A DNA stretch of 64,000 nucleotides. Source: Yuukianura sp. NJ FZ-2021 (taxonomy: Eukaryota). Shown one piece after another: positions 11,640-55,833 of this stretch. The notes under the pieces are model-generated. The model did not search any database. It saw only the letters and a list, made by a program, of their open reading frames with translations, and had not been told where the DNA came from. Within the stretch, counting starts at the first letter, position 1. The number at the start of each line of letters is the position of its first letter. The position numbers and the translations under genes are program-made. The DNA lies in assembly GCA_046563655.1 (NCBI GenBank), contig CM102288.1, positions 2,666,001-2,730,000 of the forward strand, read 5' to 3'.

Positions 11640-14600
11640 TTACGTGTTCACATCCCAGATTTCTGCCAGGAAGGCAGGTAATTTCTTATTCTTCAGTTTT
11701 AGGCTAAAGCACATCTCTGAATTGATGTTGCCCAGGGTTCGCAGTTCGGTTAGGACGCCAAGAAGTTTTGCAAAATTTACACCTTCAAAAACAAATCCAC
11801 AATTAGTTGAAATTGCTTAAAGTAAGAATTCAATTAACACGCTTAAACTTATGTCTGACCTGGTCCAACTGGATGAAGGTATTCGACATAGGCTCTCAGC
11901 GCTTCGAGGTAAATCTCTTGAATCTTTTCTACTTTCTTAGGTTCCAAGAGGGCAGGACGTTCTGTGAGACAAATTCAAAATTATTAACAATTTCAAATTA
12001 ATGCTCAAATGTTACCACAAAAATAATTTGTGTCTTTGTAAGTCACAATTTTCTGTAAAAATCCTTACCTGAGAAAATTACTATGGCCGTAAGGAGGGCA
12101 TATTCTGCATTATCTACTTTCATCATACAAAGATGTCGACAAAAGTTAAAGAGAGGATCTGCCGTTTTCGAACAACCTGCCAAATTGTAGTTTTCACGCG
12201 TGTAAGGATAATTATTGGCAAAAACTATTGTGTCTGATTGATAGTCGTAGCGTCGCCCTGTCCGCAGCATCATCACTTCCGACGAACAGGCCTGCAAGCA
12301 CAACCAAAAAAGAATAAAAATCAGTAAAAACCAAACTCAAAAATTCAAGTCGTAATTCAGGAATCTCAAATTTTGTATCTCAAATCTCAAATTTGTATCT
12401 GAAATCTGAAATTTTTCATCTGAAATCTCAAATTTTGTTACAATTTCACAACAAATCAACAAAGAAATTCACAAATCTCAGAGTAAACGCAAAATCTTTA
12501 AAAATTGAGTAAAAAAGTGAAATTTTCCGCCGATTCTTTTCGTTTTGTGGACCTTGAGTAGCGTAATTTGATCCTCCCTTAAGAGCGTATCAAATCCCGG
12601 GAGTCTCTTTGAGAATTCCACTGTCAGTTGTACTGTGAGGATCGTCATTTCCGTAATATGTTTGAACTTCGAGTCTGCTTCTTCTCCCGTATGAATATTT
12701 GAAGAAGACTCCTGTCAAGGACAAGTAATCAATTAATTTCTTAATTAATTTACCTTAAGTAACGTAATCTGATCCTCTCTCTCCAACTTGTCGAAGCCGG
12801 GTAAGCGTTTAGAGAATTCTACAATGAGTTGAACTGTGAGGATGGTCATCTCTGTTATGGTTTGGTAGCGTCCCTCACACGCGTACTCACCGTCCATTGG
12901 AAGACCCTGACATCGGAAGCAATCAGAACAGGAAAAGAACAATTAGGTTTAAAGAGACAGCAGAAATAAGAAATCATATTTTCATGATCAAATTTTTCAC
13001 AATTTTACATTTCCACAAAACTACGATTTGACCCACAACCCACCACAAAAATAGTTTCACCACAGTGAAAATCAAGTTCGAAAAAAAAAAAGTTTTTGCC
13101 AAGAAATTCCACTTTCCTCGTTTCCTCAAAATCTTAGTTTCCTATTTTTCCTCAAAAAATCTTGCAGTTTCCTCCTTTTCCTAAAAAAATAAAAAATCTA
13201 TTTCCTCACAAAATCTCAGTTTCCTGAAGATTTCCTCAAAATCTCAGTTTCCTGAAGATTTCCTCAAAATCTCAGTTTCCTGAAGATTTCCTCAAAATCT
13301 CAGTTTCCTGAAGATTTCCTCAAAATTTCGGTTTCCTATTTTCCTCAGAAATCGGTTTCATCTGTTTCCTAAAAAATCCTCATTTCCTCATTTTGAAAAT
13401 TCAACACTTACAGAGCATTTAGCTCCTTTTTAGTGCACTGGCTCAACATTTAATTGATGTTTACATTAACTTAACATTTGCCAGTAGCACATTTCAGGAG
13501 GAGGGTATAATGGTAAAAATGACTCATGCATAATTTGCAGGTCTTTCGAGCCCAGTTCAAAAACGAAAGGGAATTTGCAACAAACAATAAATGGCCACGG
13601 CGTAGTAGGTTGGTAGGTATAGGTAAAAAAGCTAAGGTAAGCCAACAACTTACTATACAAAAGACTGTTGCGAAAAAATATTCGAGTTCAATCACCCCAC
13701 GCAGGAAAAAAACGCAAAGAAAAACCAGCCTACCACCAAGCCAGGCCCAATTCGTCAACAACAAAATTTCTGGAAATTTTTACTTTTTTATAACACTATG
13801 CTCAAAGGCTTTTTTCATTTGAGTATTTCTCTCCTCCTCTTTAAAGATCTCATCATCATCATCACCATAAAATCCAAAAACTTTTCTACCTGGGCGGGAC
13901 GTAGAATTCTAAACAATTAAACTTAGAAACTCTCAATTCATGAAATTTTTTTTGAAAAACTTACGTTGAGACGCTTGAGATCTTCTTCTGAAGGTTGCTC
14001 AAATTCATCTTGAAAGTACACGAGGCGATTGATGAGCTCTTCCTGTTCAACAGAGAGACTTCTTCCACAAGGACGAGGAATCAGCATTGGACTCGTAGGA
14101 CAAATTTGCTCTTCCTACGACAAAAAAAAATAAGAAAAAAAAGTTACTAAAAAGTTCAAAATTTTTTCTTAAGTTATCATTCTTCCGCATCAGTTGACAT
14201 CTACCAACTCCTCTTTCGTCTAATCTCCAGCGCACATCAAAAAGACGAAAAAGAAGAAACTTTTTTCAAAAAGTTTTTGAAATATAAAAAAAACTGGTTT
14301 AAAAAACTTTCAAAAAAAATTTCCACGAATTCAAGCATTCATGCGGATCTGACGGAAGAAGAACATCGTAACTTTACCGCATGACTAAATTTGCAAAGTA
14401 AAAGGAACAGAAACTCAAAAGTCTCCGTTTTCTTCGCAAAATCTGTCGCCCACACTTCAACTCTCAGAAACACAAAATTTAAAAATCGCAGGACTTTTTG
14501 AATTTGAAACTGTCAGAAATTTTTGAATTTGAAACAGCCGGAAATTTTTGAATTTGAAAATGAATTCAGTACCTTGATGTTATCCAGGAGCGTGATTTCT

Positions 14601-17600
14601 TTGGGCGTAGGTGACTGTGTCGTTGAATTTGGTTTTTCTTTATCCTTCTGTGCTTTTTTCGCTTCTCGCTTCACGGCACACTGGTACTCAGGTACAACGC
14701 CTAAATCCATCCAAATCAAACACAAATCAGCGATTATTCTCCTCCACCTCCAAATTTTTTGCAAACTGAATCAATACACTTTTTAGCACTCCAAAAAAAA
14801 ACTTTAACAAAAGCCTCCTATTATCAAATTTTGAAAAATTGATAATCTAACAAGTTGAGGCAGGACTACAATGCTCCATTGTGTCCGTCTCTCTCCTGTT
14901 TATTTAAGAAAGTTCGTTCGTCTATCTTAGAAGTCTATTTATGCATCTACTCTCCTAGCTAATTTGCAACACAAGAGGGGATTAACCCCTTACTCATCAT
15001 CATCAGCATCATCATCTCTGGAGCCTTAGTTCTAATCGAGATGCTTAAGCAGTATTCCCTCCGTTTGCAAAAAACTTGTCAAGTATATTTTGTTGAAAAA
15101 TATTTTATGCATTCTCACACTCCGGCCTCATTCCAACCGTTAGGCACTTCTTGAGTCGACACTCCTGACACTTTCTCCGCATGTACATATCAATTTCACA
15201 GTTATTTCCATACTTGCACTGGTAGACAGCATTCTTCGTGATGCTTCTTCGGAAGAACCCTGTATGGACAAAACAGAACAGAAAAAACAAGGAAATTATT
15301 TATCAGTTCAGTGCTAATTCATTTCCCAGGCCCTTCAACGCCCACTCCCTCAACTCAAACACGAACAGGAAATTGATATTCCAGAATAACATCAAATGCT
15401 CAACCAAAAAACATACTTTTGTACAGAACTGTACATTTGGACATTCCAAGTGTACAACTCTGTACAAAATCCATTAAAACATCCCATTCCTATTCGCTGA
15501 TTCGATTCACAACAACTTTGATCATTCCCTTTAACTTTCTCTTTCATTAATTTTTCTAAACTCGGCTTTTTCCAGTTATGAGTATGACCTTCGTCTATCG
15601 CATTTTACAAAGTTTTCGAAAAAATCCCGAAAAATTCATAAAATCGCCAAAATTTAACAAAAACACACCCATTTCCAAACAAAATTGCAACTTCCTCTTC
15701 CCTATTTACTTAACCTTGCCGGCGGAGAAAAAAAAACTAAGCGAATCCAGACTTCTAGGCTTCTGGAACGACTGGCAACATCCAGAAGTGGCCTTGGTGC
15801 TAAATTTTTACGCAAATATGAAACGTTGTGTAAATTGCAAAAAAAAATTTCATCACTCTTATTGACGTCCCGGTTCAAAAGTTTACATTAAAATTGGACT
15901 TTACATAAAATTACATGCGCTTGCCCAATGTTTTACAGCGTTCTAAAAAAATCGATTCTTTGATTCCAGCCGCCCGCCCTCAATTTCCAAAATTATCTTC
16001 GTCCTCAATCAATTCATCGTCAAATATTTTGTCAACCCCCATAAACTTTATATAAACAAAACAATTTTAAACAATTTCTTGGAACTTTTACAACAATCAC
16101 AATCACAAAACAAAAACCTAAATCGAACCGCCTCCACGAATAATCATTTCATTTTTCAAAAAACAGAAGGCCGTAATCATAAAATAGCTACCCGTCAATC
16201 CCTCCGCCAATTTCATGAGAAATTCGCACAAACTTTTTCGCTCACGCCACGCAGACGCACAAAGCCTTCTCGGAAATCGAGCGGAGCTCCTCTTTGCTCA
16301 GTTTTTAATTACTTTTTGAATTCTAAACTTCTTAATTAATTCTTGACGTGCTGACCTTTGCAACCTTCACAGGTTAGGGCATTGTAATGGTATCCTGAGG
16401 CTCTGTCTCCACAAACAAGACACAGTTCCTCCTGCTGCCTAGGCACGGGCCCCTTCTTCTTCTTGTCACTACTGTCTGCTCCAAATCCGCCTGTAGGTGA
16501 CAAGTCCTCGCGCCCTACAAATCACATCAAACAAATAAAATATATTAACATTTAAATCCAAAAATAAAACTTACTAACCACAATTGTCAACATTCATCAC
16601 CCAATTCTGACTCAGACTCAAAATTTCATTATCAATTTCCTCAAAATATCTAAAAACAGCCCAATTTTATTTTTCAAATCAACCCAAGTAACAATCGTCA
16701 TCTCAAAAAGTCCCGAAATTCAAACTTTCCAGAAAATTTTAAAATCAACCCAAGCAACAAATTTTAGCATAAATTACAACATTATCTTTCCGAAATCCAG
16801 CGCCCAAGTAACATATTGAGTTGGATTAGTGACACATTACTATATTTCCAGCGCAGAATCCAGACACTGGAAAAAGCAATGCAAGTGATGATCTCATTCT
16901 TTTTAGTCATGATATTATCCCCGTATTCCAGAAACAGTTTTGGAGCTTATCGGTCATTAGATAAAAAGTGGCAGTTAGCAAACTAAAGTGATCCAAGTAC
17001 ACACATGAATCTGTCGACTAATCATGCCAACCTCTATAACGTTAATGCTTCAACCAGAACTCTCGTCAATAGATAGACGAAGTTTACAAAGTAAACAATA
17101 GGTGTAAACGCCCTTCTATTTTTCTCTCTCCTTCTTTGCTTGTTCGTGTCTCTGGAAAATAAATCAAACAAACAAAGAGCTAGTCCGCAATTCTTTACTT
17201 TATCAAAAAAATTCCTTTAAAACTCACAGATTCATCCTCGGTACTTTTTACACGGAGGATGAACATAACATAACAAACCTAACATTCGAAGCACACGTCC
17301 TGTTTCGCTTCAGCAACTTCTCCCGTCTCGGTAATAACCATTTGATGTTACTCGAAACCCATTATGAGTAAAACCGTGACAAAAATCCCACGCTTTTTTC
17401 TGTTTTTCTTTAGCACATAAAATTGCAAACCATGAAAGCCAAAATTAAAATTGAAAAATCCCCACCACAGCTCTCCAGTAATTTGCAAATTTCTGACATG
17501 CCTAGACTCAAAGTTCAAAAAAATCAAAAGCTCCAGCCATCAAAATTCCAAATCAGTCTTTCCATCAGTATCAGAGAGAACAATGACATGAAAACAATAG

Positions 17601-20600
17601 AATTGTTTTGTCGAAAATGCTCCCTGGGAACCAGTATTACCCTATGCACACGCTACGTTGTGACGATGACGAAGTTTGGGCATAGTGGCGTAGTAGACTC
17701 AGATATTGAGCTGTTTCGACTCGGGAGTTGTCGGGGTGAATGCTCTCTTCAGGTGTATTTCAAGGTTAGCGTGTCAGTGTCCTTTCCCTTTCATTTCCAA
17801 CATTACGCCACAAAGATCCCACCACAACCTCATTCAAGCTCTCCTATGATCAAAAACATCAACTGGAATGCTCTTTCCCTATGTTAAAATATCAAATTTT
17901 GTCACAAACACTCGACACATCTCTCTAAACCCCTTCATCTCCAAAACTTCATCTGCCCATGCGTCTTTTCTACAAAGTCAAGAACAAGATCAAAGGGACC
18001 TAACCACCAAGTACAAACTCCTTTTTACAATGTTAACAAAATACTTTCCATCTCATTCTCCCTGCACTTTGTATTCTCCCATCATCTCTACTTGCAAATC
18101 TCTACACCACCACCAAATGACCTTCAACTCGTTTCTCATTGATCCCATCGATCCATCATCCAAACAACTACACAGTTGGTACAGCTTGTAACACTCAACC
18201 CGTGCAACACAAATAAATCTCCCACCTCAAAAAACTGTCAGAAATATCAAAAATTTCCGGTCAAAATCACAAAATTCTGTTAGAAACTCAAAATCAAAAT
18301 CGGAAGAATTTTTTTTTGTCAGAATTTCAGAAAACTTTCGCTAAACGTATCTGCAAATCTCTAAAATCATCGGTCAGTTACTCAGAATCGGAGAATTTTC
18401 TGCCGGTATTTAAAAACATCAAAATTTTCGCTCAGAATTTCAACATCCCAACTTTTCTGTCAGAATTTCAAAACCACGAAAATTTCGACCAGAATCTCAA
18501 AATTAATTTTTCACAACCTGAACCTCTTCGGCAAAAATCTTTCACAACCTCAAACTCTTCGATTCCCAGCACTTACAAACTTGAAACTCTTCAGCTAAAA
18601 ATCTGCGAAAATCACTAAAATTCTTCTACCGACGTTTCATCAAACTCTTAACATTTTTTTTTTCGTAAAAGTCTCAAAATTTCGAAAATAAATACCTGAC
18701 GAGCAACTGTCCGAAAAGGAACTGACGAATGACCCTGAATTTCGGTTATCTCGTCTTTTGGCAATCAGGGCCGTAATGTTGGCTCCAGCCGATCCTGTCA
18801 GGAGATGCGCCGGATACAAACTATTGTTGTTCATTCCAGCAGGTCCAGTCGTCATGTTATTATTATACACATTTTGAAGGTCAAGGTCCCAGAGGTCATG
18901 TTCCAGCTCATCCGTCAGACAGTCACTCCCAGTACTCCCCCGACCTCCAAGGTTTCCTAGGCCCATTTCTCCCAAAAGTAGAACACTTCCGCTCAACATA
19001 TTTGTGTTTCCACGCCGATTATGATTGGTAATTTGTCTTGAATTGTAATTAGAAGAGGATGACACCTCAGACTCATTGCCCATAGCACACGGACATTCAA
19101 TTAACAATTTAGTCTGACACTGTGTCCGACGTCCTCTTATGTCCACTTAAGCCCAAGTGACGCCTGTCTCAAGGGGCCACTTATCACTCTCAACTTTTGT
19201 CCAAAATTTTTGGCACTTTTCTCACAAAATTCTTCTCCTAGCTCTCTTTCCCAAAATCTTTCAAAACTTCCCCAATATTTTCAAAATTCCAGCACAAATG
19301 TTGCTCCAGTACTTCCAGTGATCTAGCACCCTGCAGCGTTTATAAACAAAAGACCAACAGTGTATTGACTATCACTTGCCGGGAGTAAAACCTACTCTGA
19401 TCCACCCTCCCGTGTCTTCATGCCGTCTATATCCAAACTCTCAAGTTTAAGGTCTCCCAGTTAGCCAAACCAACACTTTTCAAAAGACTATAAACCAGCG
19501 CCTATAACTTCACCATTTCCAGACTACAAGCACCAGCTCTCTAAAGTGCTAAAAGCGATGAGCCCCGTATCAAACAACTTTTACTTTCCTATACTTTATG
19601 GTCTAAAAAAACTCAGAGATAGCCTAAAGTGCAGCCCAAAGCAAAAGTCCGGGAAAACTTCCCACTGGCAATGGCAATGGGAGTGCGCAGAGTTTTTTTT
19701 CGTTTTGCCAGGGTTGAACATTCCCTCTTGGGCGTACTATGCTTACATTACTTTTCAACTAGCATGCTAAAACATAACTTTTACACCACTGACATTGACA
19801 AAAACTCCAACAACTGCCAAAAAACTAGCAAATAGCAACCTCCTACGGTACGATAGCCGCCTTCATATCTGGGCTGCTATAATCAACCCACCTCAAAGTT
19901 TCCCAGGACCACGAGAGCACTGTACCGTGGCCGGTGGCACCGCCGCGGTGTGTAGGTGGGCCACAGTCGCCAACCATTTTAGACCAAATCCCTAACCCTA
20001 CCACCATCTAACCTTATGCACCAGTCAAAAACACAAATTGTACATATCAAAGTACAATTCCCACTCCAAATTCGCAATTTGCACATCAATTCTCATGTCA
20101 ATTCAAGATCCCAATCACTTTCACGTGATGGTTGGTCCATTACGCGGACAAAACGAAGTTATAATTCAAAAACGTTGTGAAAACGTTTACGCTGCAAAAA
20201 CGTTTTTCTTTTGAGTCAATAATTTTTTCTGCCCACGATTCTTAAAAAAAAGTGCTTTTGGCTGCCTTGCAATTTCAAAATTTAACCACAATTTCAAAAT
20301 TTAGCCAAATCCTGTCGAAATTTCATCAAACACAATTTTGTTTTGGCAAAACTAATTTTTTCGCAGAATTTTTTGAAAACCAAATCCATAGCTCGAGGAT
20401 CCTACATTGGCAGAAGCCTGAAGCTGCCCTTAATGATACCATCATGCGTATCACTTCCAAAACTCTTTAACTTGTCACACTTCTTATACAATTTTAATCC
20501 CAGCCATCGGGGTTTTTGGAGACTACAAAACGACCATTAAAGGCTTAATGCTGTTTTGTTAGGTTTATATCTCACATAACCTAACAAGCACATCCCAATA

Positions 20601-23600
20601 GCCACCACAAACATATGCCATTACACACTCATTCTGCTACAAAAGTTACGCCAAAAAATCCTGCCCCACCAACTGGTTCCCGTCCATCATGGCCATAAGA
20701 AAATACCTTAGGGGTTAAAAATCTCCTTGTCCAACACTAAATTCCTCTCCCCATCAACATCATCCATCAACTTCTCAAACTAAAAACCAAAAAAGAAATG
20801 GAAAGTATGCAAAAAAAATCGCATTTAGCCAACACGGACAAAAAAAAACACAAAAAATTGCAATTTTTCATACCTCCATTTTCCAAATCCACCCTGCACG
20901 AAACCCCGCCAAAAAAATCATCTACAAACCACAATTTAAAAAGCAAAAGACTCCAAATAAAAATTAGTTCAAAAAAATTCTACTCCCTATGTTCGAATTA
21001 GTGCCAAAATTTTTGTATCTTCTACAAAAAATTTTGTCTTTTGAAACTTCGTGTTCAAATCTACATTCAACGTAACTGCGTACACAATGTTTGTCCTCCC
21101 TTGACACCTTGTAGAATTCAGCCTTGTGCAAAAATCGATTTTTTTTAAAAAGTCACGATGACTACCCTGCCTTTCTAGAAAGTACCTTGTACCTTGTCAT
21201 GCATTTCAGCACAGCACATAAAACCTAACTTTAGTCTACTCAACATAACTTTACCTAACCTTAGAGACACATTACAATACACGGAAGAAGAAAAAGCAAA
21301 AGCACCTCTTGCGTCATTGAGCAATCATAAAATTTAAACATACATTCGAGACGTTCTGTCTCCCTCCCTTCCATTTCCGAAATGAAACATTCATACAACA
21401 AACTTTTCAAAATTCAAAGAACCAACTTTTGTATAGTACTTTCAGTTCCTTTCATTTCACATTCACCTTTTCCATTTTTCAATGAAGACATAATGCACTT
21501 TTTGTTTACTTTGTGACACAAAAGACTCAACTTCCTCACAATACTAAATTAGCATTCACTATTTTACACTTAACGCTACAACATAAACGCCTGAACATGA
21601 CTAAAAAAGGCACCCAGTGCCTAAAAAGGCACCTTTAAAAACGGTTGACGCATACGTAAATTGCATCCGTTGTAACCACAATGTGTAACCATTGAAGTCT
21701 GGACATAACACTTTAAATACTCAGCCTACCAATTACAATATGCAACCACTTGTAACCACATATTTAGTGAATAAAAAATGGCGTCGGTGGTTACAATGGA
21801 TGCAATTTAGCCTTACCCCAACCTTAAAACCTATAAAGTTAAAAGTTACTTTTTCCACTTTGCACAAAATCGTAAAACTTAACATCAGTATAGTCTAACC
21901 TTACAAAAATGTTGTTAAAACCTAACCTAACAAAAGTGCTGCCTATCTTAACATAAGAGACGAAGGAAATTATCCATTCAAGGGCAAACCGTAATAGTCA
22001 CTCTCCAAGTTGTCACAGCAAATATCCTATTTTTAGCATTTTAGTACAAGCACATCATCAGAGAGAATTGCAAAAAGCTTTTTATTTTTCGCAAACCACA
22101 CATGCGTCTCGTCTCTGGAGCTTCACGGACTGATGGAAATGGAAAAAGTTCATTGAATTAGCAACCTAACACAACTTTTTAACACAAACTTGGCATAGAC
22201 AACTTCTAAATGCCAAAAAAAAACTGAACTGAAAAGTTTGCCAAAATATTTTTTTATTAATTGAGACGCGTAGGACATCTAACTTCAGGCGCCATTCTCA
22301 ATTTGCAACAAAGTTATTTCGTTCCTGTAGATGTCTATCACAATAGTGGTGGTGCACCAGTCTACCTTGACTTTTACTTTTCACAAAAAGTCACACGCTG
22401 CTGCTGCAAAATAGTGCACCTTTTGAAAACTTTTTGGACAAACTCACTCTTCCGTGACCTCTGACATTTCCTCTCTCCATCCAAACTCTTCTTGCTCTTT
22501 TCCCTTTCAAAAACCCCACCCATTTGACCTTTAGTATATACCATCACACTAGTCAAAAGTCAAACCTAATACTGCAAAAACAGGCACAGATTTACCCATT
22601 TCGCTTGAAATTTCTGCCGAGAACCGCAGAGTGTGGAGCTAATTAGTCTTTTCAAAAACGAACATGCGAAGGAAGATTGACACCATGATTGTTTTTGCTT
22701 CATTCCATTTTCTGAAAAGTCTGAATTTCAAACACACAGAAAACCAAAGCGACCTGTCAGAATCAAGTCAAATTGAGGTCACTCAGACCCCTTATGGTGA
22801 AATTACGTGTTCGAAAGAGGTCAAAATTCAAAATAAGAGTCCAAGGTCAAAATTTTCAAAATTTCGAAATCCCACAGAAGTGAAAAATGGCCCAAGGCAC
22901 ACGGCAAGGTCAACAGAAGAAAACAAACATAAAAATCATCATCGTTCTTTCTACTTTTTCAAAAACCTCGACTAGTGACATTTTCACAAAAATTGTCACA
23001 CGCATCATCTTATGAATTACCCACTTTCGAAATTTCGAACGTCCAGTTGGGCAGAAAAAAAAACGAAAATTGGAACTTGAGGTGAAACAAAAAACGAAAA
23101 ATTACAACTTGCACGGAAATGACAGGTTTTAAAACTCACAAGAGCGACTACTAAACTTTAACCATTTCCAAAATCTTCAAAATTTTGAAACAGCCTTGCC
23201 GTGCAATTTCAAAACAAACTAAAAACTCCGCCTTCGCCAATTCAAAACTTTTCCTGTCCACCCCCTTCAGTATTCCAAAACTCGCAAACTAATAATTTCA
23301 GGTCTCGACTTCCCGAATTGCCACTTGATTCAAACGTTTTTCAAAATAGTTGCTATTTTATATCAACCCTCTGTTCAAAACAAAGGTTTTTCAAAGAGCT
23401 TGTCTAAAAAGCACAAAGTTAAGTTAAAGTTACAAGGTCCTTCAAGTTTTCCAAACAATTCCATTAGGTAAATGGGGGAGACACGATCGCTTTCCAAAAG
23501 CGTCATCCCACACTCAACTCTTAGAACTCTTAAATTGCTTTGTCGCTGTTTAAATAGCCATAACTAAAAACAGATTAAAGTCTCAAACACACAAACAACC

Positions 23601-24357
23601 TACACGAAACTATCGATTTAGAACTACATCTTGCAGTTCCATCAAAAAACACACGCTGTCTGGCCCTCCCCTGTCCAGAAAAACCTTGACCAATCAATAC
23701 ACATTCATAAATGGACACAACTTAAATTAAAGTGGGTTCGACGCCCACTCTCTCCGCTAAAATTTTCAACTTTTCCATTAACATTTTGCTATTCTAGTAT
23801 TTAGCACTCCAGTAGCAACTTACTTCAATGCTCAACGCAAAATGCAATGAATAGGAAAACGAGCATTTCAAAAAAATTGCCAAAAAAATATTTCCAAAAA
23901 ATCTTCTTCCAAATCGAATTCGACACATCGCGAGTTGCTAAAATTTTGAACTTTCTTGGTTACAACTATTTCCAACCAACATGACCCCCAGAATTGCCCT
24001 ATTTTACACCAAATTTCAACTTTGCATTGACACAATTCCTTTAATTCCAGAATATCTCAAAACCTTACCATTTTTAGGAGAAAATTCTTCATCATCCATT
24101 GAGGCCGTATCCATATCATCTTGTGGAGATGAATTAAAGTAATTTCCGGAACATTGACTACTGAAATCCTCCCACATCTCTCCATTTGTAGAAGATTCGT
24201 GACGGAGTCGCTTGGACGCTGGTGGCATTCCATTGAGACTGGACGCGTCAAGTCCAGAACCATTGGTGAGTTCCGTCTTGATTGTCATCACAGTGCCACC
24301 GCCTCCCTGGAGGTCAAGGGTCCTCGACTGCAGTGGCAGTGGGGCCGTCGCAAACAT
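11640..24357 (-). CDS. EcR: Ecdysone receptor (NR1H1), isoform A, ~495-497 aa. Exons 24357-24069, 16514-16356, 15259-15119, 14700-14573, 14114-13965, [12906-12754 or 12711-12553], 12291-12069, 11961-11860, 11782-11640
   Basis: C4 zinc-finger [115 protein letters not shown]...[21 protein letters not shown]...[10 protein letters not shown]...[18 protein letters not shown]...LTELRTLGN...FLAEIWDV. All junctions are GT-AG and in phase. The first exon has IKTE (SUMO-type motif) and PASKRLR (NLS), typical of the EcR-A A/B domain. Confidence 0.97.
12553..12711 (-). CDS. EcR: EcR LBD alternative exon, downstream copy ([53 protein letters not shown])
   Basis: 159 nt, phase 0-0, acceptor ccttgacAG, donor AAG|GTCCAC, open frame, paralogous to 12754-12906. 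Not in the supplied ORF track. Confidence 0.9.
12754..12906 (-). CDS. EcR: EcR LBD alternative exon, upstream copy ([51 protein letters not shown])
   Basis: 153 nt, phase 0-0, acceptor gatgtcAG, donor AAG|GTAAAT. Encodes the H2-H4 region. Confidence 0.92.
13210..13321. repeat. Intronic minisatellite, 4 identical copies of the 28-mer AAAATCTCAGTTTCCTGAAGATTTCCTC, with degenerate copies over ~13110-13390
   Basis: Read directly from the sequence. Confidence 0.95.
14495..14560. repeat. Short tandem repeat, ~2.6 x 25 nt (TTTTTGAATTTGAAAC.G.C.GAAA)
   Basis: Read directly from the sequence. Confidence 0.8.
18696..19083 (-). CDS. EcR: EcR isoform B1-specific first coding exon (gives ~528-530 aa EcR-B1)
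   Basis: [11 protein letters not shown] (S-rich motif) and [12 protein letters not shown] (DL-rich motif), both characteristic of EcR-B1 AF-1. Phase-1 donor TCAG|GTATT joins common exon 16514 in frame (G-REDLSP). Confidence 0.9.
21657..21812. mobile_element. MITE-like element with ~23-bp terminal inverted repeats (possibly PIF/Harbinger Tourist-type) in an EcR intron
   Basis: TAAATTGCATCCGTTGTAACCAC (21657-21679) and GTGGTTACAATGGATGCAATTTA (21787-21809) pair with one mismatch. The right end continues GCC then TTA. Internal TGTAACC motifs are present. The left TSD is not clean. Confidence 0.6.
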
Positions 24358-27300
24358 GTTCCTGTCGCCTCCGTCGTGAGTTTAGGCCGCTTTTACGTCG
24401 CTTTTCGTCTTCAGTCAGTCAAATTGTTGCTTGGACTTGGTTTTAAAAATTCCCTCCGTCGTCCCCCTACGCCCAGAGTCGCCTTGGTACAGCTCCTAAA
24501 AGTACAAGAACACAAAAGAATTAGTTCAGCAATCAAAACCCAAATCGTGACCAAACTACAACTTCTCAGAGAACTACTTTGCCAATTACACTACTTTGAA
24601 ATGTGCAGATTCGTTCATCTTCTGCGTTTGATTTTAGTTCTTACAGGGCACTTTTTTTCGATTCTTACGATGAATCACGTCTCTGACCTCTACGACACAA
24701 CACAAAAAAGTCCCTGCATTTTAACGACTAACATAAACCTCAACTTTAAATTTCGAATCTAAAGTACTTTCGTTGTTCTGAAACAAGGCAAGGGCAAATT
24801 CGGACACTTTAATCATCGTTTAATGTCCAAACTCTAAAAAATTCGTGACCTTCACCTCCTTCAAGAACCGAGTAAATTGCAGTTTAGACTGCAAAAGCGC
24901 AGTCCTTAGTCACAATTTTATCAGTTTCCTTAATGAAACTCATGCAGTTTTGAGTCATCTCTTATTTAAACTACAACAGAGGAATTTGCACAACACTTAA
25001 AAATCAGAATTTAACTTCACTTTCATTTTACTACTTCTCACATTTCATTCAAACCAATTTAAAATTACATCAAAACCTTCACACTCAAAATCTTTTTATA
25101 AAATAGACAGCAAGATCATAAAACTCAACTTAACTTCCATCACATAAACAAAAACAACCAAAATTTTACGATTTTTCAAAATCCTACGTTTTTTTTTCGT
25201 CAAAATAACATTCTGCCGATAAAATACGCCAAAAAAAACTCCTTCCCAGAAATTTTGAACCGCTGAGAATTTCAAAAAATTTCAGCCGGCGGAGAAAACC
25301 GTTTTTCGTAAAAATTTTTTAAAATTCGTTCGGTTTTTTTTCCGGTCGTGACCCCCGTCTGTCCTTGCAGCTCCTATAAAAAAGCTTTTAGAGCTTACTC
25401 TCACACTGCATCATAAAATCTAAAAGGTCACGACTCTAACAATGCCTCTACTTCTTCCAGCACTGCAAGTATCTAGCAAGTATCCAAGTATACTGCCAGT
25501 ATCTACAAACTAATCAAGTTCTTCTAGTCTCCTAAGTAATTCCTCGTTCCATTATTCCTTCCAGAGTCTCCAGAACTCATTTTTGGAAACTAGGAAAGAC
25601 AATGCTTGACATTTCCTCAATTCCCCAAGCGGCCAGTCCTAAATCATCCAAAAAACTCAAATGCCGACAACTTCTAAGGTTCAATTATCGAAGAACAAGC
25701 CAAGACCAAACACTTTCTTCTGCAATTCTTAAATCCAAGAACCTAAAGCCATAAGATACACTTTTTCCTCTGCAATTTCTTAAATCCAAGGAGCCAAGAG
25801 CTAAGTACAAGTCAGCATGGAGCCAAAGCCACCCTCCGTCCCTCTGTCCTTCAATAAACCAAGGATACGCCTCACCAAACTCAAAAAAAAAATATCATCT
25901 TCATTTCATTCCATGCTCAAATTCGCATTTCGCAAAAAAAGCACAAAAAAAAAATTTGAAAATAAAAGACAGAGAGAGCCTAAAGTTGAATATATTTTTG
26001 CAAGGTTATTCGCGCAGCTCGCAAAACTTTTTTCCCAGGAGCAAACAGAGTGACATGCAAGCACACTAGCCTTTGTCCTGACTCGCTAAAAAATCGAAAT
26101 CGCCAATCCTACACCTTAGTGCAAAAACTTTTTGCAAACAGATTTTTGTCCCCTACTGTGTACATCCACTTGTGTAAAGAACCTCAAAAGACAGTGACGT
26201 AACGAGAATCTTCAGCATCTCAATGCAAAAATCCTGTTGCGATTAAAATTCGCAACAAGATGTGCTGCCTTCTAGCTCTCGTGTGCCACCTTCCTAAATT
26301 CGCCAATTCTGACCATCATGAACCTGAGGGTGGCAAAAAGTAAACAGTAAATAAACCTTTTAAAAACCTACTACATACCTCGTCAAGTCTTTTAAAATTG
26401 CAAGTGCGAAAACGTTGGTCCATCTTATAACAAGAGGATTTGGCTTGGAAAAGAGTTCTAAACTGGTTTTTTTGAATCTTGCCATTCCACTTACCTACTA
26501 AAAACATCTCTTCCTCAAACTTCAACAGAATAACCTCAAAGAAACAATGGATTTCCAACATTAAAAAGTGCAAAACATAAACCAAACGTTAGTTAAAGTC
26601 TACAGACATCTCAAATCTCAATTTTCATCCTTCGTACCTGATCATACCCTGCTTGACCCCGAGTTGACCTCAACTTCAATCAACTCCAAAAACCCAACGT
26701 CAAAATCCAAAATTCAAGTCCACTTCAAATCAAAATTGTAAAATCAAAAACCACAAAAAAATATAATGTAGTATCGGCTTACAATTTTTCAAAATTGCAG
26801 AAACTTGATACAAAATTGGTCACGCTGGTCTTGTCTTCCAATACTTTATAGCTTCCAAAACTAAAAATTGAAATTCAAGTAGCTCCACGGTATTCTGAAG
26901 AGCCAAAACTTCGAGTGATGTCGGACCTTGCTGATTACGAGTCGTAAAGTTACGATTGCGAAATTCCTATTGTGAACTTGTTAAATTTCGTAGTTTTAAA
27001 TTCCAACGACCTCCGATTCGGAATAAATACCGTGCTCAGACAGGAACTAGACCACAACTCGAGTGCTTTTTAGTCACTTCTAGACAAGTAGACCAACAGA
27101 GTAGCTAGTAGCATAGGAGCAATTGATGTCAATGCCATTGGGACTGGGTTTATCTTATTTACAGTAAATTATCCAGCCAGCCTTCCAGCACAAACCGTAA
27201 CCGTACACTCTAAAACTCTCAAACTGGAACCGACTCCAGCTTTCTAAACCAAACAAAACACAAAGTAGGTAGTAACATTATTAACTAATCTCGACACGTT

Positions 27301-27894
27301 AACCGCATCTCCAAAATGTGGCTAATTTGTACCACCATGCAACCAATACTACTTGTGGCCTTCTACAAACAATCGATTGCTCCATCCGGCCATAACAACA
27401 TGGTCGAAAGTATAAATGGAACCAATGACAAAGTCACTTGACCAACCCCCATAACATAAAACTAACAGAGAGACTTAACAAGCCGCATCTCATCAAATTT
27501 CAAACAACTATTCTTGCACAAAGAGATTAAAACTGCATGGATTTTACTTAACGATTACCACTTCCATCTTCACACTTTCAAACTCGCTACGTCCTTAACT
27601 CAAAGCTAAACAGAGGAAACAGGGGGTCGATTTAGCACTTTCAACTTACGTCACAAAATCCATTACCAATTCATAATCCAAAAAATAACCAATTCAAAAT
27701 TTTTACATAAGATAACCAAAAAACCATTTTCAAAAACTTTAACGCGCAAAAATAGAACAAAATCTCGCAAATTTTTGCAAAAAACGTGAAAATTTTTCCA
27801 AATCTCTCTCAAAAATTTACGAAATTAGGAAACAATTTTTACGAAAACTCCACTTTTTACTTCAGAACTTTCTTTTTTTTTTAAATTTACTTAC

Positions 27895-27965
27895 GAAAAC
27901 TGCTTTTCCTCTGCCGTCCGCACTGGACTGAGCGAGGTCAGCGACTGCCTACCGAAGACGACTGA
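27895..27965 (-). promoter_or_regulatory. EcR: Probable EcR-A transcription start and non-coding first exon
   Basis: Arthropod initiator TCAGTC (27965-27960), then ~70 nt of GC-richer sequence ending in a consensus donor C|GTAAGT (27894). The EcR-A coding exon begins with an acceptor (ttttAG, 24497-24496) and so needs an upstream exon. Confidence 0.6.
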
Positions 27966-30900
27966 AATTACAGAAGAAAGTAGAAAAAAAAGCGCGTTGG
28001 CGTGGGGTTTCGAACCTACAACAGCCTTTATTGTGACTCTGACTCTGACCTACCTCTGGAAAAGAACTGACCCACTTTACTCACTCTCTCATTCCCTATA
28101 CTCCGAATCCTATCTTTTCCCCCGAATTCGGAGAGATTCCATTGAGGACTCGTTTTTCGCGGGGCAGACAAGCCACCCCCGACCTTTAGCCACTCTCTCC
28201 ACGCTTCTGAGTCGGCAGACAGCGTAGCCTAGGTAAAAGTCAGAAGGCAGGGCATGGTAGAATCAATATCTGGCACAAGGATAACACTGGATACAACAAA
28301 CTTAACTTGAACAACGTCAACTTGGAGTCTAGTCTATGCTCTAAAATAGGTCAACAGCCTCCTCCCCGAATTCCAAGGTCCTTCTCATCTTCAATCCCAC
28401 GGCTTTTCCTATAAACTCAAATGGCCTTCAAACCACTTCGGAATGAGAACAGACAATAAGTTGAGCTAGGCCAAAAGAAATGTTGGAGCGTGCCTCGGAA
28501 AAAGTTACAAAACGGAGAAAATCAGGATGGAGAAAGTAAAAAAAAAAAGTAAAACGCCCACACACACCATACGTTTCAGTAATGAAGTTTGAGCAATGTT
28601 CTGAGCAGCATAGTGTATGCACAAGGGAAAGCGAAAACATGACACAATCGATTTCTCGCTCACTCAAATGGACGAAGAAACCCTGTTCAAACAAAAGTTA
28701 AGCCGACCGGGAGCCGGGTTAGACACAAAATGAAACGATTCTGGATCAACTGCTGAGTATCCTTAGCGATATCCACTTCACGCCTTACCAAGGTCACGAC
28801 GACAGCGTGACGATGGAAACGGTTAACATAGACGTTGAAACAGTTACATTCCTGCTCTGCACTTTCAGTCCAAAATGTCAAAGTTCAACTTAAGTTTAGC
28901 TTTGTTGGGACTCTCGAGCTATGAATTGTCAGCTAAACGTAGACGATGAAGCCAGTGATGAAAGATTTTGGAGTTTGAGTTAAGTGAGGTCAATATTACC
29001 ATAAACAGGAAATCTAGGAGACACCGGAAAAAATCTGTTATTCAAAATCAAAACTTTGAAGTTACAGAATTCTACTGAAAAAATGTATTCAATTCACCAA
29101 AAAATTTCCAATCCGCAACTCACTAGCTAGCAGCAGATACAGAAGTTTTTTTCAACAGAAGTTGAATATTCTTTTAAGCTTGATAGACATCTGAAAGCAA
29201 TAAAACGACATTTAATTCCCTCGAGAGCATCATGATCATCTCCTCTCTTAATAAGTTGTGAAGAATACGATTTCATTTTTCTCAGTAAACTAATCAAATC
29301 AAATCCATTCCATTGAGATTTAAGTGCTGAGGGGGTCACACGATCTAGAACTAAAACTCTCTCAGATTCTCCTGTTATGTTAGTCTTTCCACGCTCTTGA
29401 CCCCGATGATCTCTTAAATATGAGAAGGATACACAGAAAATGAATGGTAAGTTTAAGTTGACATAGAGTGTGCACGAGTTCATCTTCTATTGATAGTCTT
29501 TTGCTTCTAGTCCAGAAGAAGTCGAACACAAGATAAACACGAAATCAAAATTCGATTAGAAACGAGGAATTGGAGTTGAAGAAGGAAGCGAAGAGAATGC
29601 TGTCGAAATTCAATTGAACATACAAAGATTGTCATCTTCCGATGATACTGGAATGGCAATATGTCTTTAGTGTTTAGGCAAAAACAGTAGATTTCGTAGA
29701 ACTGATTAGAAACAAGAAAAGATCATCGACCTAGCTACATCTGAAGACATCCCACGTCAGAGTCCTCACAAGTTTGATTTAAACGAGACCAAAGAACTTT
29801 AGAATCTGCGCTGTCTGATGAGTCGCCTTTTCATCAATGAAATGACAGATGACAGATGAAGTAATTGGAAACTTGACTTTAAACCTCAACTTTATGTAAC
29901 AAAGAAAACATAATTTAAACTGAGACTTGATTGAAGTAGAGCGAATGAGACATTTGATTTAACGGTTCCTAGCAGGCTGTTAACGAATGAAATGTCGTCA
30001 AAGATCTGAATACTAACGGCGGACTGGTAATAACCTTGACAGAGTCTCACTTTGCAAAACGTAATCTTCCTTGGTAAATTACTTTAGTAAATTGAAGATT
30101 AGCATACCCTAAGGAGTCCTAAGGACGAGAATCCGCCGAAGCATATCATGGGTCAATCTAGCACGGCTTGAACGGAGTTCACACCTAGCCAACAAATTGT
30201 CTGCAGATGACGTTAGTAACTTCCTGTTAAGTTTTAAGTATTGTTGAAGATGGAACGATGAAACTTCCTTCCTACAACGTTTCCTGTAGCTCTGTCCTTT
30301 ACCGAGAAGTCTAAAAACAACAGACGCAAGACACAACAATCAAAACCAAAACAATCAATAAGCTAACCTAAACATCATAAAAAGCATAACCTAAACAGTA
30401 AACAGCAGTTTCGTTTCATTTGAAGAGAAAGTATTGAAACTCCATGCAGCAGAGCCCTTAAAGACCTTGAAGGTCGGTCGACAGAAACTAATTATTTGAA
30501 AAGTTTTTAGAGAATTACGATTAAATTGAGGTCACCTAAATATGAGACTAGGTTGGCTGCTGAAGCCATAAGCATGAGCTTATGAGAAAGTGAAACCATG
30601 AGAAGGAGAGGGAAAGGGACTTACAGTAAGTTACAGGCTATAACCTTAACAATTTCTGTAAGAGTATCAATTGAATGAGGATTACTTACCGTTGTGAGTT
30701 CTGGAGAAAAGAATCCCGGGATGATTGTCCTTTGTGGAAGTTAATTCATTGTGCTGGAAGTTGAGTAATTGTTCTGATTATCCAGTATATCACTTAAGTT
30801 TAGTAAACAGTGTCGGAGCGTTTGTAAAGTGTATGGATGATTGTAAAAAGAGAGAGGAATGAAAATGAAATGTACACAAATGAAGGAGGAGTTCAAATCC

Positions 30901-32648: not shown

Positions 32649-35054
32649 ATGGGCCAGACGAGACGCCGTAGTCCACGCCCTTCTGCCCTCACGAAGAAGT
32701 GGGAAAAGATAGCGTCCTCCTTCAGTTTCTGCTGGCGAGACACAGACCGCGTGCCTCTTCGCACTTTAGCTCCCTTTGACCCCCGTGTTTCATGTACTAA
32801 TTCAACAATTTCACCTTCACCAGTATTCGCTACGTGGGCTCCACGACCTCTGACACGGTAAGAACCAACTGTTACAAACTGTTAATCATCAATTACTCAT
32901 TAATCATCGCTTCAATCCAAGAGTAGTTGAGCTCTTTCGCTGAGTACCGGCATGGGATGGGTGGGAAGTTTGAGCGGGAAGAGTCAAATCCCCACCTTAC
33001 CGCTCTCTTCTCTCTCCACTTACCAAAACAGAGATAAGCGTTTACTTAAGTGTAGTTAACTAAACATCATTTAGTACAAACTAATTAAGTTTATCCTGAT
33101 CTCTGCCTTAGGGACATGGGCTCACTGACAACACCATTGACTGTCACCAATTTACCTGTGACTTCATCCCAGCAAAACAATGATCCCGATGTGGACGTCA
33201 TCAATCTCATTCGAGAGTGGGAACTGGAAGAGACTAACGGAATTTGTAACAATCGTGACGAGGACAAGGTAATGCTCTTTTAAATGTATTGACAACAACG
33301 GAGAAAGTGTCAATAGGTCAAACGCCCCGAGGTCTGGTCAGTCTCAAGAAAATCCGTAATCCTTTTGTTTACTAACATTGGGATTAAGATAGGCAAATTG
33401 AAGGCATGTTTTAGCGGCTTAACGGCGGGCGGTAGTGTTCCAAAACATTAACTCTGCGGTAGGTCCCATCCCAATTTGCGATTATGAATTACCGTTAGAA
33501 CAGTAGTGTTTATTTTTGAAGAAACCGAAAAGGATTAGGCTAATTTCGAACTTTCCCTCTTTTTTCAAGAAATGAGTAGAATATTCCCGAATCCGGGTTT
33601 TTGGATGACGCAACTTTTATCATGTGTGGTTTACTTTTTTTTTGAAAGTTTTTATTGATGTTTCATTAATTCGTATCTTGTTTTGTTCCAGTCTCCGATA
33701 ATTTCTACGCAAACTACTACGACTTCGAACATCTCTCCACCGCTTTCAACTGTCAACAATTCAATTTGTACCGTATCTGTTACTGCAACGAACCCGCCGA
33801 CCCAAAATGGTCACCCGCTTAATCCGCTTCTTGACGCTGAACTCTCAACCCTCTCCAATTTACTGTCTGATGTCTACAATTACGAAAGAAAGCAACAGGA
33901 TCTAGTGTAAGAAATGCAATTTTCAATTAATTTTGCAGATTAATTTGCTGTTCCTGGATTGTCAATTCTGATTTCAATTTCTTTTTCTATAGGCTCCAAC
34001 TAATCGATGCATTAAGTTTGGTCAAACATTCATTAGAAGAGGAACTCATGAATGGAAATAATTTGAGTATTACTCTCCACGGTGTCCATGAGTTGATATC
34101 CACTGCCAGGAGGGCCAAAGGTGACGAGGTTGGAAGAGTCCTAGCGGACCTTCAACTCAAGCGAAAGATCATCGAGGGAGCTCTCATTAAAAATCTGGTA
34201 AACATTATTTATTGAAGAGAATTCGAAGTTTGTGACAGTTTCTGTATAATTTAATTTTTTTGAATTTTCAGGTGAACCCGTTGAGCTGCTTGAGTCGCTT
34301 GCCAAACGATCCTCTCCGGTTGATCCACACTATTACGTCATCCAAGCTGGGATCTCACACAAATACTAAACCGATGCAATTCCAAAACAACCAGCAACGT
34401 CTCCCACGATTCTACTTTGACATGGAAATCAATGGATTGATGTTGGGTCGAGTGGTCATCGAAACTCGACCGGACGTTGCTCCACGCATGTGTGAAAACT
34501 TCAAACAACTTGTGACTGGTGAACGCGGGTTCGGGTTCTTGGGTTGCTCTGTGTTTCAGTGCTGGCGCGGCGAATCCGTGAGTCTGACATTTTCAAAATC
34601 TTTGACAATTTCAAATTCACAAAAATATAACATTTTTTTTTGATTCCACAGGTTATTACTGGTGACTTTGAGCATAACAACGGGCGCGGTGGGCACTCAA
34701 TCTTCGAGACCGGTCTTTTTATGTAAGCAATTTGCAATATTTACCTAAACAATTGTCAGTTTTGAGATTTGAGTAATTCAATTTGCGTTTTTTAGGCCTG
34801 AAGATACACGTCTCCCTTCTACTCGCGGTTCCATTGGGATGCGACGTACCCAGAAGCGTCACGACTCCAAGGGCTTAGTCGGTTCTCAGTTTCGTATTAT
34901 TCTGCAGGACATGCCAGGCTTCACTGGGATCTTCGGAAGAGTCGTGGAGGGAATTGACCTGGTGGACAAAATCAGTGAATGCGGTGATCCCAGTGGAAAC
35001 CCGATGAAGCGTATTATCATCCGAAGATGCGGAGTTGCCGTCGCTTCGGCTTAG
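32649..35054 (+). CDS. ~473 aa protein with a low-complexity N-terminus, a helical middle region and a divergent C-terminal cyclophilin-like domain. Exons 32649-32857, 33112-33268, 33692-33906, 33993-34197, 34272-34577, 34652-34722, 34796-35054
   Basis: PRFYFDMEINGLMLGRVVIETRPDVAPRMCENFKQLVTGERGFGF...TGDFEHNNGRGGHSIF...GSQFRI...IFGRVVEGIDLVDKISECGDPSGNPMKRIIIRRCG matches the cyclophilin fold. All introns are GT-AG and in phase. The first exon is the least certain. Confidence 0.88.
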
Positions 35055-55146: not shown

Positions 55147-55833
55147 TTACGTGAGGTTGGAACAAGTATAAAAGTAGTAGTGAAAAAAATCGCCAAAAGT
55201 TAAGACCTGAATGGAAGACCAGTATTTAGAATATTGTTGCTTTCGAAAGTAGGGTTCTGCAAAAGTAATGGAAATGAAACGACCAGTATCCGGCTTCAGA
55301 ACTCGAGCGATTGATCTTAGCGTGTTGTCTACATCCTCCTGCGCTTGGGGACTTAAAGTCCACACTGATTTCTCCCCAGTGAAGAGAACATCCAGAGTTC
55401 CTTTCTCAATGACAATGTCAAATTGACCTGGAGGGAAGTCCAAGTTCCGCATGTCCATCTCAACGTATTCCATAAGCGCCCCATGCTGCTTTTTCATCTT
55501 GTCAATAACAACTGCAGAATAGTCTATGTTCGTAATATGACTGAATCCGTCATTGTAAAGATCCAAGGAAAGGTTGCTGTTGCCACATCCTAAGCAATGT
55601 CAAATGAAAAGATGTCACTCAAGGGAGGAATTCAACATTCGATATAATTAGTTATCAATTTATTTTTGCTTACCGATTACGAGAATGCGAGAGTTCTTGG
55701 AAGGTACTGCTGAGTCGAACAAAGTTTTGAAAGCGCTGTAGTCCTTGCACCATTCGTAAGATTCTTCATCCTTATACCTCTGGTCCCAGTATTCCACATC
55801 CTTGTAGTTCTCATTCTTGTCCGGTAAACTCAT
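55147..55833 (-). CDS. EEF1AKMT4: EEF1A lysine methyltransferase 4-like (ECE2 N-terminal methyltransferase family), 200 aa. Exons 55833-55674, 55589-55147
   Basis: MSLPDKNENYKDVEYWDQRY...YEW, motif I ILVIGCGNSNLS, ITNIDYSAVVI, MDMRNLDFPPGQFDIVIEKGTLD, RVLKPDTGRFISITFAEPYFRK, FGDFFHYYFY. Confidence 0.93.

Follow-up and report, generated by a model that had tools for sequence, protein, structure and literature searches.

We analysed a stretch of 64,000 nucleotides (nt) from the genome of the springtail Yuukianura sp. NJ FZ-2021 (GenBank assembly GCA_046563655.1, contig CM102288.1, positions 2,666,001 to 2,730,000 of the forward strand), referred to below as the window and numbered from its first letter. 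The window carries the gene of the ecdysone receptor, EcR. Our analysis of its sequence indicates that two neighbouring exons of this gene, here named a and b, probably form a mutually exclusive pair in the ligand-binding domain (LBD), the hexapod counterpart of the LBD exon swap of decapod EcR. We put the probability of this reading at about 0.6. Exon pairs of this kind are already known from decapods, so the arrangement as such is not novel. Its occurrence in a hexapod may be new; it is apparently unreported from any six-legged arthropod.

Exons a and b encode two versions of one LBD segment

The coordinates of the gene are given in Table 1. An earlier note on this DNA, made from its letters only, had described the two exons, and its coordinates, translations, AG/GT sites and phases were all correct on re-reading; the junctions that it proposed (donor at 13965, acceptor at 12291) also fit the full gene model. 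The exons were described there as tandem duplicates, and the comparison bears this out. In the conserved block of the last 39 codons, 32 of the 39 residues are identical and 37 of the 117 nucleotides differ between a and b. The remark that mostly third positions had changed also holds, since 20 of the 39 codons differ synonymously, 7 change the residue and 12 are identical. The residue differences of the block are RYQT versus KFKH before ITEM, I versus T in QL(I/T)VEF, and K/T and E/L after GFD. The N-terminal 12–14 residues of the two exons are unrelated loops. Only two copies of the paired exon are present in the window.

Exon a is 100% identical over 98% of its length to P0123, a spliced, transcript-derived protein. 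Over 98% of its length, exon b is 87% identical to the EcR of Daphnia magna, and from KFKH on its 39 residues are identical to those of D. magna.

On the nuclear-receptor LBD profile PF00104, which has 213 positions, exon a covers positions 14–50 and exon b positions 12–50. Since both match the same stretch, they are two versions of one segment and not successive parts of the domain. By comparison with nuclear receptors in general, this segment would begin with the loop that follows helix 1, continue through helix 3 and reach into helix 4. In such receptors these parts line the ligand pocket and contribute to the coactivator groove. Judged from the translations, an exchange of a for b would be a change in the LBD itself.

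The two exons have the anatomy of a mutually exclusive pair: they are adjacent and homologous, of like length and of phase 0-0, and either of them alone keeps the reading frame. The gene also has two alternative first coding exons, of A type and B1 type. The coding sequence (CDS) is open in all four combinations of A or B1 with a or b, giving products of 495, 497, 528 or 530 amino acids (aa). At the level of the CDS, one gene could specify four receptors, as had been proposed.

Both exons are conserved in springtail-like relatives

The earlier note had suggested looking for the exon pair in relatives, where it is indeed present. When metagenome contigs were scanned with exon b, 42 loci were obtained, and in five of them, all springtail-like (L001, L004, L013, L019 and L021), the exons stand in the tandem order a then b. 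Further unspliced b-type open reading frames (ORFs) were found in P0008, P0009 (the springtail Allacma fusca), P0010, P0022, P0216–P0220 and P0272.

We then compared the last 39 codons between the six loci, that is, the window and the five tandem loci. For exon b, the proportion of synonymous differences (pS) was 0.52–1.07 and that of nonsynonymous differences (pN) was 0–0.18. For exon a, pS was 0.39–1.01 and pN was 0–0.10. Synonymous sites are thus near saturation while replacements are few, in agreement with the purifying selection on both exons that had been suggested from the window alone. Exon b has an open frame, a length that is a multiple of three and AG/GT sites at its borders in all six loci.

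The closest relative of the window is L001, and the sole alignable block between the two is 12971–12548, which takes in both exons, the intron between them and about 65 nt on the upstream side of a. The upstream part (12971–12907) holds a branch-point-like CTAAT motif and a pyrimidine tract. Apart from this part and one 17-mer, the 1058-nt intron upstream of a cannot be aligned with L001. Exon b is as conserved as exon a in this comparison. By these measures of their sequences, both are coding exons kept by selection, neither artefact nor relic.

A different layout was seen in L040 (152–1159). There, exon a seems to be split by an extra intron after GFDK, with an 11-residue piece as a 33-nt micro-exon. 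A second copy of this piece, without a GT donor, lies just upstream of b, which is located about 765 nt downstream of the a match.

Splice signals and a proposed mechanism

The a-b intron is 42 nt long, compared with 2181, 1096, 418, 458, 1058, 261, 107 and 77 nt for the other introns of the gene in the window. Wherever more than one intron of a locus could be measured, the a-b intron was the shortest, with 42, 51, 63 and 36 nt against others of at least 77, 94, 80 and 109 nt, respectively.

The donor sites of the two exons differ at the +3 base, which is A in all 7 a donors (GTAAAT in the window) and a pyrimidine, C or T, in all 6 b donors (GTCCAC in the window). The usual donor consensus is GTRAGT. 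By this consensus the b donor appears weak, which fits an exon needing help for its inclusion. Within the a-b intron, a core of 10 nt, AATTAATTGA, is common to the window and L001. This core is a candidate branch point for the b acceptor, and it would lie some 20–30 nt from the a donor.

We propose that the donor at 13965 would join either the acceptor at 12906 (exon a) or that at 12711 (exon b), and that the chosen exon would then be joined to 12291. Exon b would be a minor or conditional form, with a donor that is conserved but weak. Joining of a to b would probably be blocked sterically, because in an intron as short as this one (42 nt in the window, 35–63 nt in the five related loci) the a donor and the b branch point would lie too near each other. 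Work on alpha-tropomyosin and the minimum intron sizes of flies suggest that such a distance is too close for splicing. As to a possible contribution of RNA structure, folding of a 111-nt segment that spans both the a donor and the b acceptor revealed no extra stability relative to shuffled sequences (z = −0.22).

Exon a is the form found in spliced transcripts

Seven spliced springtail-like sequences were found (P0123/L031, P0124, P0084, P0059, P0078, P0094 from Orchesella, and L025), and in all seven exon a is joined directly to the next exon. With its consensus-like donor, and as the sole form in these transcripts, exon a looks like the default form. Protein searches and the metagenome scan for a spliced springtail exon b returned unspliced b exons only. 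For 11800–14200 of the window, a search of sequencing runs listed no RNA run, a result that does not bear on expression.

L013 (995–2252) is in a different state. Its introns are absent from the DNA-binding domain through exon a, and it retains the 47-nt intron, exon b and then a 122-nt intron. L013 is RNA-derived, because its upstream introns are missing. As a partly processed transcript whose alternative region is spliced last, it fits a late or regulated removal of this region and is no evidence that b is used. We infer the use of b and mutual exclusion in springtails from the conservation of the exon, the short a-b intron, the weak b donor and the decapod precedent.

Comparison with known systems

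The closest known system is the EcR of decapods. In Eriocheir sinensis, the isoform Es-EcR-4 has the 150-bp exon 7 of the LBD replaced by a segment of equal length derived from an intron; the account of this isoform in that report presents the swap as exon skipping plus intron retention, and not as a duplicated exon pair (PMC5636884). In Table 1 of the same report, 10 of 11 crustaceans have LBD variants and 20 of 20 insects vary in the A/B region only, and its Table S2 gives 2289 bp for the intron after exon 7 (PMC5636884). The mention of crustacean LBD-region variants in the earlier note is thereby correct. NCBI isoforms of other decapods carry one exon or the other, as in Portunus (X11 versus X12), Procambarus (X15 versus X19) and Panulirus (X13 versus X8). 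Read-through models in Petrolisthes, Homarus and Procambarus X4 contain both decapod exons in tandem, and the model of the barnacle Amphibalanus has two tandem copies too. In the protein set compared here, the helix 3 segment is doubled in P0003, P0006, P0007, P0009 and P0011 (Petrolisthes, Homarus, Procambarus X4, Allacma fusca and Amphibalanus).

The window pair is similar to the decapod swap in several respects. It lies in the same place, after the exon ending in EEDLKK(I/L), whose window equivalent ends in EEDLKRLN. It has the same phase and nearly the same size (150 bp in Eriocheir, 153 and 159 nt in the window). The RFRH-type exon comes first and the AKFKH...GFDTLL-type exon second. The two systems differ in that the host of the window pair is a hexapod, and its exons are 42 nt apart, where in Eriocheir the whole intron after exon 7 has 2289 bp. 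Moreover, use at the RNA level has been shown in decapods, whereas the window pair is known from sequence.

In the blue crab, Callinectes sapidus, the forms CasEcR1 and CasEcR2 are proposed to differ in the hydrophilicity of the pocket, and so perhaps in their preference for 20-hydroxyecdysone or ponasterone A (PMC4388526). By analogy, it may be hypothesised that such a difference in ligand preference also applies to the pair in the window, for which the earlier note had suggested differences in ligand preference or cofactor binding.

Insect EcR-A and EcR-B1 are isoforms of the same gene, which in the window likewise has A- and B1-type first coding exons. Unlike the window pair, which varies the LBD, these insect isoforms share one LBD. 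In alpha-tropomyosin, mutual exclusion of exons 2 and 3 is enforced by an intron that is too short. The window is comparable in having adjacent alternative exons whose donor-to-branch-point distance is probably too small for the spliceosome; an Allacma-like relative, in which this intron has about 108 nt, departs from that pattern. In Dscam1, the exon 6 cluster of arthropods is chosen by competing RNA pairing. The window shares with it the tandem duplicated alternative exons of an arthropod gene, but no stable structure was seen across the a donor and the b acceptor; docking and selector elements were sought in the alignment of the window with L001.

Our literature search found no paper joining EcR, mutually exclusive exons, crustaceans and the LBD, and none on tandem exon duplication in the ecdysone receptor, in a full-text collection that covers subscription journals thinly. 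Springtail LBD-region EcR variants, which the earlier note had also mentioned, were not found in this collection, with the same thin coverage. Of the papers found, one on springtail EcR dealt with gene copy number only, and another mentioned springtails just in a reference on toxicity. A review of crustacean endocrinology contained nothing on LBD isoforms. Such absences are weak evidence, since the primary papers on crab, lobster and shrimp isoforms sit in the thinly covered journals.

Relationships of the two exon types

We aligned 52 exon sequences and constructed a tree from 47 columns, the groups being named after the sequences had been seen. The loop before helix 3 carries motifs specific to each type. 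Those of the a type are EGEDASEVRFRH in springtail exon a, DGEDASDLRFRH in a dragonfly, as an example of the insects, and DGEDTSDMRFRH in decapod exon 1. Those of the b type are HDSEAKFKH in springtail exon b, SDSEAKFKH in cladocerans, DDSDAKFKH in decapod exon 2 and YESKFKH in an ostracod. By these sequences, exon b appears to group with decapod exon 2 and the sole exon of Daphnia, and exon a resembles the sole exon of insects and decapod exon 1.

In the tree, a clade of springtail b (5 of 6 sequences), decapod exon 2, branchiopods and ostracods received support of 81/86. Forcing springtail a and b into one clade was rejected (difference in log-likelihood, 21.4; approximately unbiased test, p-AU 0.01), and the b-type set as one clade was acceptable (p 0.52). 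In the cladoceran contig P0019, the helix 1 exon is followed by about 25 codons of intron and then by a b-type exon, with no exon of the a type in between. A divergent second cladoceran EcR-like LBD, reading GFDSLL, was observed in P0048 and P0051; this fits the EcR gene duplication of daphnids (PMC13449613).

The pair is probably older than the split between hexapods and decapods. It may be an ancestral pancrustacean module, of which decapods, barnacles and springtails kept both exons, insects kept a and branchiopods kept b. From the exon comparison we regard this history as having about an even chance of being right.

Alternative explanations

Several results weigh against reading a and b as a mutually exclusive pair. 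Exon b is present in none of the seven spliced springtail-like sequences, nor are both exons together in any of them, and no join of b to the next exon was seen among the 24 inspected of 61 short ORFs. In the springtail-like L024 (251–697), only a 72-nt intron separates exon a from the next LBD exon, and b is missing. Exon b has therefore been lost at least once and is dispensable in at least one lineage. In addition, b reads TKLT in L019 and TILT in the others, and b of L021 sits on a long branch. The absence of b from the spliced sequences and from L024, together with its non-consensus donor, would suit a silent relic of an old duplication that is never spliced into springtail mRNA. This is very unlikely, as b keeps an open frame, a multiple-of-three length and its AG/GT sites in six loci, its pN is only 0–0.18 while pS reaches 0.5–1.0, and in the comparison with L001 it is conserved like a while the neighbouring introns cannot be aligned. 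Both exons also stand together in several database gene models, including Procambarus X4, and, because the lengths of a and b are both divisible by three, double inclusion would escape nonsense-mediated decay. The models of Petrolisthes, Homarus, Procambarus X4, Amphibalanus and Allacma, and a CDS with a and b together that is open in the window gene too, would agree with a receptor having a duplicated helix 3 segment. Such joint inclusion is highly improbable, given that a and b occupy the same PF00104 positions, that all seven spliced springtail-like sequences have a single copy, that either the one exon or the other is found in cloned cDNAs of crabs and in most NCBI isoforms, and that all other introns of the gene are much longer than the 42 nt between a and b. 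The two-exon models of these three decapods, Allacma fusca and Amphibalanus are probably annotation errors. As for the steric block, the a-b intron of about 108 nt lies in the Allacma-like contig behind P0010, so that this block is not a universal mechanism; no minimum intron length for springtails was found in the literature, and 42 nt is not certainly below the limit. That the pair is an assembly or haplotype artefact, which the earlier note had already doubted, has a negligible chance of being true, since the conserved blocks of a and b show 37 differences in 117 nucleotides and the same pair recurs in five independent contigs. A mutually exclusive pair accordingly stays our reading of the two exons.

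The other alternative concerns the link to the decapod swap. Springtails and decapods might have duplicated the exon in tandem independently, with the resemblance of b to Daphnia and to decapod exon 2 due to ancestral residues and easy K/R exchanges. The tree leaves room for this. Decapod exons 1 and 2 as a single clade were not rejected (p-AU 0.106), and with 47 columns and groups named post hoc, 4 of the 44 inner branches were well supported and most were unresolved. Chelicerate exons have a 15-residue stretch in common with the b type, and RF.H in common with the a type. Since chelicerates likewise have GFDTLL, shared ancestral residues may account for part of the b-type signal. On the other side, a single clade of springtail a and b was rejected, type-specific motifs recur across lineages in a loop before helix 3 that is otherwise variable, and an a-like exon comes first and a b-like exon second in both springtails and decapods, with a barnacle model that also has two tandem copies. 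We therefore consider independent duplication unlikely, though clearly less so than the other alternatives, and prefer to see the window pair as the counterpart of the decapod exons.

The EcR gene of the window

A complete EcR (NR1H1) gene runs on the minus strand from about 24.4 kb down to 11.6 kb of the window. Its exon limits follow from six-frame ORFs and from tblastn searches that used related EcR proteins, and the boundaries were inspected; AG/GT sites were found at all eight internal exons. The Pfam profile zf-C4 (PF00105) matched at 15257–15120 with an E value of 1.7e-16. PF00104 was matched by exons a and b and by 12291–12070; exon a scored above the curated cut-off, and b and the next exon scored just below it, as expected of fragments.

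The nearest sequences to this gene are P0123 and the EcR of the springtail Orchesella dallaii. P0123, a transcript-derived protein from a close relative, agrees with the window A-a product at 420 of 487 residues. Against solved EcR LBDs it gave 1.6e-119 (1Z5X) and 2.7e-107 (2NXX), ahead of the best LXR entry at 1.1e-87. Named matches in the protein searches with exons a and b were EcR throughout. Identity over the large LBD exon was 82% for Orchesella, 72% for D. magna, 67% for Tribolium and 58% for Portunus, which by similarity makes the gene springtail-like. By these matches, in which EcR comes ahead of LXR, the gene is EcR and not another NR1H receptor.

Table 1. Exons of the EcR gene in the window, and the a-b intron in the window and in related loci
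Feature	Position	Strand	Details
A-type alternative first coding exon	24357–24069	−	55% identity to the N-terminus of P0123
B1-type alternative first coding exon	19083–18696	−	holds DLWDLDL motif
DNA-binding domain and hinge, common exons	16514–16356, 15259–15119, 14700–14573	−	zf-C4 (PF00105) match
Upstream constitutive exon, end of hinge and LBD helix 1	14114–13965	−	150 nt, phase 0-0, ends in EEDLKRLN
Exon a, LBD segment	12906–12754	−	153 nt, 51 aa, phase 0-0, AG/GT
a-b intron	12753–12712	−	42 nt, in-frame stop
Exon b, LBD segment	12711–12553	−	159 nt, 53 aa, phase 0-0, AG/GT
Downstream constitutive LBD exon	12291–12069	−	223 nt; acceptor would take the donor of a or b
Last two LBD exons	11961–11860, 11782–11640	−	stop codon 11642–11640
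a-b intron in L001			51 nt
a-b intron in L004			35 nt
a-b intron in L013			47 nt
a-b intron in L019			63 nt
a-b intron in L021			36 nt

The GC skew of the plus strand is −0.16 to −0.34 per 2-kb bin over the body of the EcR gene (12000–28000) and near zero elsewhere. As the plus-strand skew is negative, the sense strand of the gene is G-rich relative to C. Short imperfect tandem repeats, with units like TTTGAGATTTCAGAT and TTTCAAATTCAAAAA, are present in introns at 12340–12480 and 14480–14560. Further coding pieces of the window, recognised by eye, are cyclophilin-like (34236–34643, plus strand), methyltransferase-like (55147–55599, minus strand) and similar to a kinase C-terminus (61188–61709, plus strand).

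Significance

Moulting has its master switch in EcR. The receptor is also what diacylhydrazine insecticides act on, and it serves as a reference in ecotoxicology, where springtails and Daphnia are standard test animals. If it is true that springtails make two LBDs, predictions of sensitivity from a single annotated isoform would be incomplete. The public models named above that join both exons are probably wrong in doing so. If the pair is ancestral, the helix 3 pocket segments of insects and Daphnia would descend from paralogous exons, and comparisons of the EcR pocket across arthropods would mix paralogous helix 3 segments. A trait called crustacean-specific would then be an old pancrustacean trait lost in insects, and springtails would be hexapods still able to make two hormone-binding domains from one gene.

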